Shown here one piece after another: positions 63,191 to 64,000 of a stretch of 64,000 nt of DNA. The stretch is taken from positions 32,001 through 96,000 of the IMG/VR virus record IMGVR_UViG_3300032050_000037; one strand, 5' to 3'. This DNA comes from a virus. Under the pieces are notes generated by a model. That model was not told the origin of the DNA. It did not search any database and saw nothing but the letters and a program-made list of their open reading frames with translations. Position 1 is the stretch's first letter; the number at the start of each line of letters is the position of its first letter. The position numbers were made by a program, and so were the translations under genes.

Positions 63191-63220
63191 TTGACTAAAT
63201 AAGTATAAATATTATATAAT
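63191..63220 (+). promoter_or_regulatory. SigA-type promoter for katG, TTGACT-18-TATAAT
   Basis: Same CTATTGACTAA -35 context as the tRNA promoter. Confidence 0.6.
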
Positions 63221-63248
63221 AGATTATCTACTAGTAGAAAGAGAAATA

Positions 63249-64000
63249 ATGAGCGAAGCAAAATGCCCATTTACGGGTAATGCATTAAACAATCAAAAAA
63301 CATCAAATGCAGATTGGTGGCCTAATCAATTAGATTTGTCAGGATTAAGAAAGCATTCAGAAAAATCTGACCCAATGTCAGATGATTTTAATTATGCGAA
63401 AGAGTTTGAAAGTTTAGATCTTGATGCTATTAAAAAAGATATTGATTATCTTTTAACTACTTCGCAAGAATGGTGGCCTGCAGACTATGGTAACTATGGC
63501 CCATTCTTTATTCGTATGGCATGGCATTCAGCAGGTACATATAGAATTTCAGATGGTCGTGGTGGTGCTGGAGAAGGTCTACATAGATTTGCTCCACAAA
63601 ACTCTTGGCCAGATAATGGTAATTTAGATAAGGCCCGTCGTTTGCTATGGCCTATTAAACAAAAATATGGAAAGAAAATTTCGTGGGCAGACCTTATGAT
63701 TCTTGCAGGAAATGTTGCTCTTGAAAATATGGGATTTAAAACATTTGGTTTTGCTGGTGGCCGTGAAGATGTCTGGGAATCAGACGATACATATTGGGGA
63801 TCAGAAAAAGAGTGGCTTGCAGACAATCGTTATAGCGGAGATCGTGAATTAGAAAATCCATTAGCTGCAGTTCAAATGGGATTAATTTATGTTAACCCAG
63901 AAGGCCCTAATGGAAATCCAGATCCAGTTCTTTCTGCAAAAGATATTCGTGAAACCTTTGCTCGTATGGCAATGAATGATGAGGAAACAGTTGCACTTAT
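63249..64000 (+). CDS. katG: Catalase-peroxidase, 3'-truncated by window edge (not in track)
   Basis: [87 protein letters not shown]. Confidence 0.95.

Follow-up and report, generated by a model that had tools for sequence, protein, structure and literature searches.

An intact and probably host-derived catalase-peroxidase gene with a trimmed C-terminal domain in an uncultured actinophage

The stretch of viral DNA analysed here (the window, 64,000 nucleotides) comprises bases 32001-96000 of the 113,072-bp IMG/VR virus record IMGVR_UViG_3300032050_000037 and ends within katG, which encodes a catalase-peroxidase. The record is linear and metagenome-derived, has a GC content of 33 % and lacks terminal repeats; CheckV assigns it a completeness of 100 %. 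It encodes a portal, a maturation protease, a major capsid protein, minor tail proteins, a large terminase, a DNA polymerase and a tape measure protein of 2099 amino acids (aa). A preliminary description of the window, made from the sequence alone, had proposed that katG protects the infected cell from hydrogen peroxide (H2O2). The following features lie at this end of the window:

63191..63220, plus strand: candidate sigma-70-type promoter, TTGACT-18 nt-TATAAT, in the 64-bp gap 5' of katG
63228..63237: perfect 10-bp palindrome CTACTAGTAG, a candidate operator between the -10 box and the ribosome-binding site
63236..63244, plus strand: Shine-Dalgarno-like purine-rich AGAAAGAGA, read from the sequence, 5 nt 5' of the ATG
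63249..64000, plus strand: katG, first 250 of 680 codons, with the distal Arg-Trp-His triad and the adduct Tyr and Met

The katG open reading frame (ORF) starts with the ATG at 63249, continues past the window end and runs uninterrupted to a stop codon at genome position 97291 (window-equivalent 65291), giving a protein of 680 aa; the window holds the 5' third of the gene. A disruption further downstream, against which the preliminary description had cautioned, was not found in the full record. The three motifs on which the gene had been recognized were all located, IRMAWH at residues 88-93 (R89, W92, H93), GLIYVNP at 211-217 (Y214) and FARMAM at 237-242 (M240). The window part of KatG matched the Pfam peroxidase family with an E value of 9e-32, and the whole protein reached 967 bits with NCBIfam TIGR00198 (cut-off 770), the model of catalase-peroxidases (HPI, class I of the peroxidase-catalase superfamily), and 1080 bits with PRK15061 (cut-off 981). 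A second, weaker peroxidase-type match in the C-terminal domain revealed two fused peroxidase-like domains. The top solved relative was KatG of B. pseudomallei (BpKatG), which aligned end to end with an E value of 1e-274. No intrinsic terminator was found after katG.

Residue conservation was analyzed in an alignment of 74 KatG sequences. The distal triad R89/W92/H93 and the proximal triad H255/W306/D367 were invariant, as were the adduct residues W92-Y214-M240 of the Met-Tyr-Trp cofactor, the mobile Arg404 switch, the channel residue Asp122 and Ser300. All residues needed for the Met-Tyr-Trp cross-link are thus present, and the cross-link itself is predicted. The AlphaFold2 model of phage KatG had a mean predicted local distance difference test (pLDDT) score of 80 and a predicted template modelling (pTM) score of 0.82, with most of the C-terminal domain above 90. 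Superposition on BpKatG (PDB 5L05 and variants) and on M. tuberculosis KatG (MtKatG; PDB 2CCA, 1SJ2), with which the phage protein has the two-domain fold in common, gave template modelling (TM) scores of 0.87-0.88 (0.88 for BpKatG) and covered both domains. Identity to these two enzymes was 57-60 %, and the residues of the distal and proximal haem pocket and of the Met-Tyr-Trp adduct were identical.

Phage KatG is 40-65 aa shorter than typical KatGs, and the losses are confined to the linker between the domains or to the haem-less C-terminal domain, which is present but ~40 aa shorter. BpKatG residues 3-622 and 680-727 align to the phage protein, whereas residues 623-679 (57 aa) are reduced to 24 aa. 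An 8-aa loop after the equivalent of BpKatG residue 510 is missing, and there are smaller linker gaps too. Among the viral KatGs the deletions are in-frame, nested and limited to two surface segments, and the trimmed region is still modelled confidently by AlphaFold2 (pLDDT >90).

When IMG/VR was scanned with the KatG protein, at least 151 contigs were found to encode relatives, the best 80 at 72-95 % identity. The flanks of the related katG contigs have dozens of genes in common with this phage, including terminase and DNA polymerase, and the same phage-katG junctions recurred in dozens of independent assemblies. The gene occupies at least three contexts in the relatives: after homologues of g127-g129, as here, directly after the terminase-g083-g091 block, and adjoining a carbamoyltransferase gene; katG has moved between these positions within the phage group. 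Among the katG-bearing relatives, two have genomes closed by direct terminal repeats, with katG internal, and five are CheckV-complete. On the 3' side of katG, where phage genes had still to be confirmed, a 302-aa ORF, an HNH endonuclease gene and small ORFs common to related phages are followed by a minus-strand block of small genes, the early arm. Because phage flanks recur and two katG genomes are closed by terminal repeats, mis-assembly and host contamination are ruled out for practical purposes, and with them the host chromosome or chimeric join that the preliminary description had named as a danger.

The katG ORF was intact in 77 of the 80 related loci. Pairwise ratios of nonsynonymous to synonymous substitution rates (dN/dS) among the viral copies were 0.08-0.20, with dS up to ~1.3. 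The GC content at third codon positions (GC3) of this katG is 0.19, compared with a phage gene median of 0.16 and 0.39 in host katG. By these sequence measures, katG is an old, selected resident of phage genomes that has been recoded to phage base composition. Four CheckV-complete close relatives by capsid (112-120 kb) carry no katG. In one of them (G685) the empty site can be seen, the g134 homologue following ~270 bp after the g127 homologue and the g128-g133 cassette missing. Judged by gene content, katG is accessory and would not be needed for the core phage cycle. A tblastn search for katG in isolated GenBank phages detected no genuine carrier; the seven matches (53-58 % identity) were rejected as contigs of Salmonella, Acinetobacter or E. 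coli or as short fragments without annotation.

In a first scan of species-representative prokaryote genomes, KatG identity to the phage protein did not exceed 63 %. After sampling of the class Actinomycetes and then of the order of the best matches, the nearest cellular KatGs were found in genomes of 1.1-1.5 Mb, with 63-67 % identity over the full length. Order membership of the sampled genomes rests on the grouping of the tool and on names from exact-sequence look-ups, which gave Candidatus Nanopelagicaceae, Ca. Planktophila dulcis and Ca. P. versatilis for the nearest KatGs. The genomes G028, G034, G267 and G377, listed as unpublished, support none of the conclusions. Group B KatG (Ca. P. 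lacus type) was only 52-54 % identical and distant in the tree. An assignment of the best-scoring small actinobacterial genomes to this 'group B' (Synechococcus-like) acI KatG was discarded, as the cluster names show group A (P. dulcis, P. versatilis).

Three KatG trees were built with the LG+G4 model, not with mixture models (FastTree with 155 rows, IQ-TREE quick with 74 rows and IQ-TREE careful with 44 rows). In all three, the viral KatGs formed one clade (support 100/99), the viral and Nanopelagicales group-A KatGs together formed one clade (100/99) with other Actinomycetota as sister, and the KatG of G624, a metagenome-assembled genome (MAG) of the order Nanopelagicales, was the immediate sister of the viral clade (100/100). 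The G624 protein has 719 aa and is encoded on contig C78 (L227:8978-11137) between genes for pyruvate-phosphate dikinase and a BenE transporter; GC content is 37-39 % in G624 and 33-40 % in the katG phages. The 37 % GC had raised the suspicion of a mis-binned phage contig, which was dropped since Pfam shows ordinary cellular genes and the other contigs of the MAG have equal GC. From its place in the trees, the G624 lineage is a candidate donor or host, and the donor lineage was possibly low in GC. In approximately unbiased (AU) tests, a Nanopelagicales-only clade excluding the viruses was rejected (p 0.02); the viral KatGs plus G624 as sister to all other sampled group-A sequences were not rejected (p 0.41). 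A single viral clade inside the Nanopelagicales group-A radiation points to one old host-to-phage capture followed by diversification in phages, which is the best-supported reading of the trees. The comparison with host KatG called for by the preliminary description thus places the viral clade with Nanopelagicales group A, and we are close to certain that the katG of this phage is genuine, intact and derived from a host.

Core lengths mapped on the tree reveal the order in which the protein was shortened:

host KatGs: 715-720 aa
basal viral KatGs L078 and L080: 716-717 aa
viral KatG L072: 703 aa (7+3 aa lost)
viral grade L040, L043, L049, L063 and L071: 689-691 aa (14 aa more lost)
crown viral KatGs including this phage: 673-680 aa (~15 aa more lost)

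Short KatGs were also detected in two genomes of the order Nanopelagicales, G443 (694 aa; L226:8543-10627) and G543 (696 aa; L197:802-2892); in both, the two C-domain segments absent from the phage crown group are missing too. Common descent of this deletion with the phages was considered and abandoned: the AU test rejected a joint clade (p 0.001, for a group defined after the tree had been seen). Because of this rejection, the same surface segments were probably lost twice, convergently, in the phages and in the G443/G543 host lineage, and their probable double loss suggests that the segments are dispensable.

The candidate katG promoter matches the consensus at 11 of 12 positions and had the top score in the scanned region (L002 1-4500). 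Its TTGACTAAA...TATAAT element is kept 5' of katG in 11 related viral loci. The preliminary description had likened it to other phage promoters, and indeed the TTGAC...TAnnnT style also precedes ~10 other plus-strand genes of the phage. The palindrome CTACTAGTAG occurs only once in the 113-kb genome. Usable sequence 5' of katG was available for 75 relatives; in 17 of them katG is preceded by the palindrome or a nearly identical one, also in some with a tRNA gene before katG. A tRNA gene lies immediately 5' of katG in 35 of the 75. The purine-rich AGAAAGAG(A) is retained in most related loci. In 17 of the 75, katG is preceded by a conserved TGTCGG-N10-TAnnnT element with a conserved GTTGCAACAC downstream of it (e.g. 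L016 ~9925-9960). In this phage, 15 copies of the same class of motif, TGTC(A/G)G-N10-TAnnnT, were found at genome positions 102414-111576 (L002 ~7400-16600, beyond the window), all of them on the minus strand and none on the plus strand, most of them 24-48 nt before small minus-strand genes. We take the element to resemble the actinobacterial RecA-NDp / PafBC-dependent DNA-damage promoter. All these upstream elements are sequence patterns, to be read as candidate signals.

Taken together, the phage KatGs may be viewed as a natural, phylogenetically ordered deletion series. After one capture from Nanopelagicales, ~45 linker and C-domain residues would have been lost in three nested steps under purifying selection, with convergence in G443/G543, which would define a minimal functional KatG scaffold; together with the variety of upstream elements (a consensus promoter plus palindrome, a tRNA read-through context or the DNA-damage-type motif), the series would suggest that phages tune their peroxide defence in a haem-starved host. 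We lean towards this combined view, with less assurance than towards the gene's origin.

The most likely host, judged from marker genes and the KatG tree, is a freshwater member of Nanopelagicales (acI). The acI-type host of the preliminary description was upheld at the level of this order by a WhiB gene, by a capsid and terminase like those of Streptomyces phages and by the KatG tree; a genus was not supported. The 15 copies of the RecA-NDp-like motif before minus-strand genes add to this evidence, and published host predictions tie katG viruses to Planktophila (10.1101/2024.02.06.579183).

In such a host, the RNA polymerase of the cell would probably start transcription of katG at the consensus promoter in front of it. 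KatG would then take up haem b imported by the host, acquire its Met-Tyr-Trp cofactor and break down H2O2 by dismutation inside the infected cell. Removal of H2O2 could limit Fenton damage to replicating DNA and shield the phage-encoded Fe(II)/2-oxoglutarate (2OG) oxygenases, mononuclear-iron and Fe-S proteins, and the benefit would be greatest in hosts with a weak or lost KatG of their own. A katG+ acI strain is more tolerant to H2O2 than a katG- strain (10.1101/2021.01.11.426183), KatG is patchily distributed among acI, and weak activity was found for the group-A enzyme assayed (10.1101/343640; PMC7527133). Stress-related and iron-dependent proteins also accompany KatG in the relatives: of the 80 related loci, 54 have 2OG-Fe(II) oxygenases within 5 kb of katG, 42 have Hsp20, 20 have TauD-type dioxygenases and 15 have glutathione peroxidase (examples of glutathione-peroxidase-domain or TauD-family neighbours are L043:8671-9486 and L005:2107-2970). 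That peroxide removal during infection is the selected role of katG we consider likely. The whole explanation, an accessory gene of a ~113-kb siphovirus-like actinophage that was captured once, kept under purifying selection, trimmed and used to remove H2O2 in infected Nanopelagicales, appears to us likely as well, by a shade the more so.

Several points weigh against this explanation. The C-terminal domain of KatG is thought to be needed for the integrity of the active site, and it is this domain that is trimmed here. Complete close relatives of the phage manage without katG, and the host assignment is indirect and reasonably supported only at the order level (Nanopelagicales). KatG of Ca. 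P. rubra, the nearest host enzyme type, is low in catalase activity (10.1101/343640). The acI bacteria are haem auxotrophs and are less sensitive to H2O2 than first thought (10.1101/2021.01.11.426183); their need of catalase for culture, which the preliminary description had adduced for peroxide sensitivity, had its cause, according to the same study, in the haem (and riboflavin) that the catalase preparation contained and not in the removal of H2O2. A search of this phage for a radical-SAM/AhbD-type gene found none, and no haem-synthesis gene was recognized in it. Because the host lineage is haem-auxotrophic and the phage has no such gene, the phage enzyme must compete for scarce, host-imported haem, and formation of the holo-enzyme is uncertain. 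A 2025 review classes viral KatG as 'not validated' (PMC12713726). Finally, the counts of genes near katG in the 80 related loci carry no statistical control.

The strongest alternative is that KatG owes its retention mostly to some reaction besides the bulk dismutation of H2O2, such as peroxidation of small molecules, NADH-oxidase-type chemistry or the handling of peroxides released by uncoupled Fe(II)/2OG oxygenases of the phage. KatGs have two activities, of which the catalase activity is weak in the related group-A enzyme of the host (10.1101/343640; PMC7527133), and the close association of katG with large sets of 2OG/TauD oxygenases would fit such a role. However, the catalase-specific residues (the Met-Tyr-Trp adduct, mobile Arg404 and Asp122) are invariant, purifying selection is strong and no substrate candidate is known; we regard this alternative as unlikely.

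Another proposal would make KatG chiefly a haem sink or buffer, not an enzyme, that redirects or detoxifies imported haem in a haem-auxotrophic host. A 680-aa enzyme with all distal-side catalytic residues kept would be a costly means of binding haem, low dN/dS extends over the entire protein, and there is no direct evidence for this role. It draws on the haem auxotrophy of acI and the toxicity of excess haem (10.1101/2021.01.11.426183), and on a small ORF near katG in 18 related phages (~115 aa, within 5 kb, e.g. L034:9440-9784) with a partial cytochrome c552-type Pfam match containing the haem c motif. This neighbour, which is absent from the genome studied here, is possibly relevant to haem handling; the proposal as a whole seems very improbable.

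Slightly less probable still is a decaying passenger gene without current function. The loss of ~45 residues from the C-terminal domain and the complete relatives without katG could be read in this way, but decay is hard to reconcile with ORFs intact in 77 of 80 loci, invariant catalytic residues, dN/dS of 0.08-0.2 over dS up to ~1.3, and in-frame, nested deletions restricted to two surface segments, in a region that is modelled with pLDDT >90. An artefact, in which mis-assembly fused a host katG to phage DNA or an island of host DNA was mistaken for virus, is hardly credible: the record is indeed metagenome-derived, linear and without terminal repeats, but phage genes lie on both sides of katG, the junctions recur in many independent contigs, the gene is internal in two terminal-repeat-closed genomes, its composition is phage-like (GC3 0.19 vs 0.39 in hosts) and the nearest cellular KatG is only ~64-67 % identical.

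The same arm of the genome encodes further proteins that the preliminary description had combined with KatG to an oxidative and UV-stress toolkit:

46703..47131, plus strand: Hsp20 small heat-shock protein (Pfam 72.5 bits)
47256..47828, plus strand: JmjC/cupin-type Fe(II) oxygenase-like protein (Cupin_8 34 bits, JmjC_2 32 bits)
53021..53332, plus strand: WhiB-like Fe-S transcription factor (Pfam PF02467, 44.8 bits), an actinobacterial phage marker
56739..57272, plus strand: pyrimidine-dimer DNA glycosylase, T4 DenV-like (Pfam PF03013, 61.6 bits)
57269..57571, plus strand: thioredoxin (Pfam PF00085, 87.6 bits)
60793..62341, plus strand: two paralogous oxygenase-like ORFs (241 and 273 aa) 5' of katG, tentative assignment

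Thioredoxin, WhiB, Hsp20 and the pyrimidine-dimer glycosylase were each borne out by Pfam. As to the Fe-dependent oxygenases, the claim stood for the JmjC/cupin protein and for several 2OG-Fe(II) oxygenases that Pfam detected elsewhere in the genome, but the two ORFs just 5' of katG gave weak Pfam matches, one to 2OG-FeII_Oxy_3 (16 bits, E 0.02) and the other to zf-CDGSH; tblastn similarity to g081 was also seen. The 273-aa ORF (window 61520-62341) has a C-terminal CDGSH iron-sulfur-type motif with a zf-CDGSH score of 27.8 bits against a cut-off of 29.5, and would be an unusual oxygenase-CDGSH fusion. An 809-aa protein (window 47893-50322) had no PHROG match and a sub-threshold, extensin-like (Pro-rich repeat) Pfam match; it is encoded in a phage rich in prolyl-hydroxylase-type 2OG oxygenases. 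Three further features locate the phage among its relatives and the gene in its cassette:

window 36998-38788: terminase, 63 % identity to ~130-kb Streptomyces siphophages, where the terminase gene is also mid-genome
L004:6708-7757: major capsid protein, 59 % identity to ~130-kb Streptomyces siphophages
L002:3318-3797 (genome 98318-98797): HNH endonuclease, 1 kb 3' of katG, within the variable g128-g133 cassette

The HNH endonuclease may contribute to the mobility of the cassette. At least 594 contigs in IMG/VR carry close capsid relatives (84-93 % identity), and by this count the phage belongs to a very abundant uncultured actinophage group.

The acI/Nanopelagicales are the most abundant freshwater bacterioplankton. 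A conserved KatG in a widespread group of their phages implies that peroxide stress limits phage production in these hosts, and that infection alters who detoxifies H2O2 in lakes. The basic picture is unchanged, and a known auxiliary metabolic gene (AMG) is sharpened into a testable system. The additions concern the evolution and structure of viral KatG, which goes back to one capture, has long been maintained by purifying selection and had its C-terminal domain miniaturized step by step. The trimmed viral KatGs are ready-made constructs for the question of what purpose the enigmatic C-terminal domain serves.

The nearest isolated relatives by capsid (59 %) and terminase (63 %) are the Streptomyces siphophages of ~128-134 kb (e.g. 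Faust, Mildred21, Gilson), which resemble this phage in genome size and in the mid-genome position of the terminase gene. Unlike them, this phage has a probable host of another order and a much lower GC content (33 %).

For the enzyme, the nearest cellular clade is Nanopelagicales group-A KatG (e.g. Ca. Planktophila rubra IMCC25003, P. dulcis, P. versatilis; 10.1101/343640; PMC7527133), which has all catalytic residues in common with the phage protein. The host proteins are mostly 717-747 aa long compared with 680 aa in the phage, and their genes have a GC3 of ~0.39 compared with 0.19. Host katG is reported to lie in a DNA-repair cassette (PMC7527133), whereas phage katG lies in a variable cassette with a candidate promoter of its own. 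The host group-A enzyme has been assayed, with low catalase activity, whereas the phage enzyme is known here from its gene.

The preliminary description had called katG rarely reported in phages. This has to be revised, since the existence of viral katG is already published: viral katG ranks with the most abundant and persistent AMGs of the viruses of Lake Mendota and is tied to Nanopelagicales/Planktophila (Zhou et al., bioRxiv 10.1101/2024.02.06.579183). Gene, freshwater phages, proposed H2O2-decomposition role and proposed host order are the same as here, and the genome described here is very probably a member of that virus population. In an estuary, gene and transcript abundances of viral katG were measured and were higher at low salinity (PMC13390420). 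In the accessible parts of the Lake Mendota, estuary and review papers, katG is treated at the level of catalogues and abundances (10.1101/2024.02.06.579183; PMC12713726; PMC13390420). Relative to these parts of the literature searched, four points are new: viral katG has one origin within group-A acI KatG, its product was shortened in an ordered series, the gene is accessory and its empty site can be pointed out, and the elements 5' of it differ between relatives.

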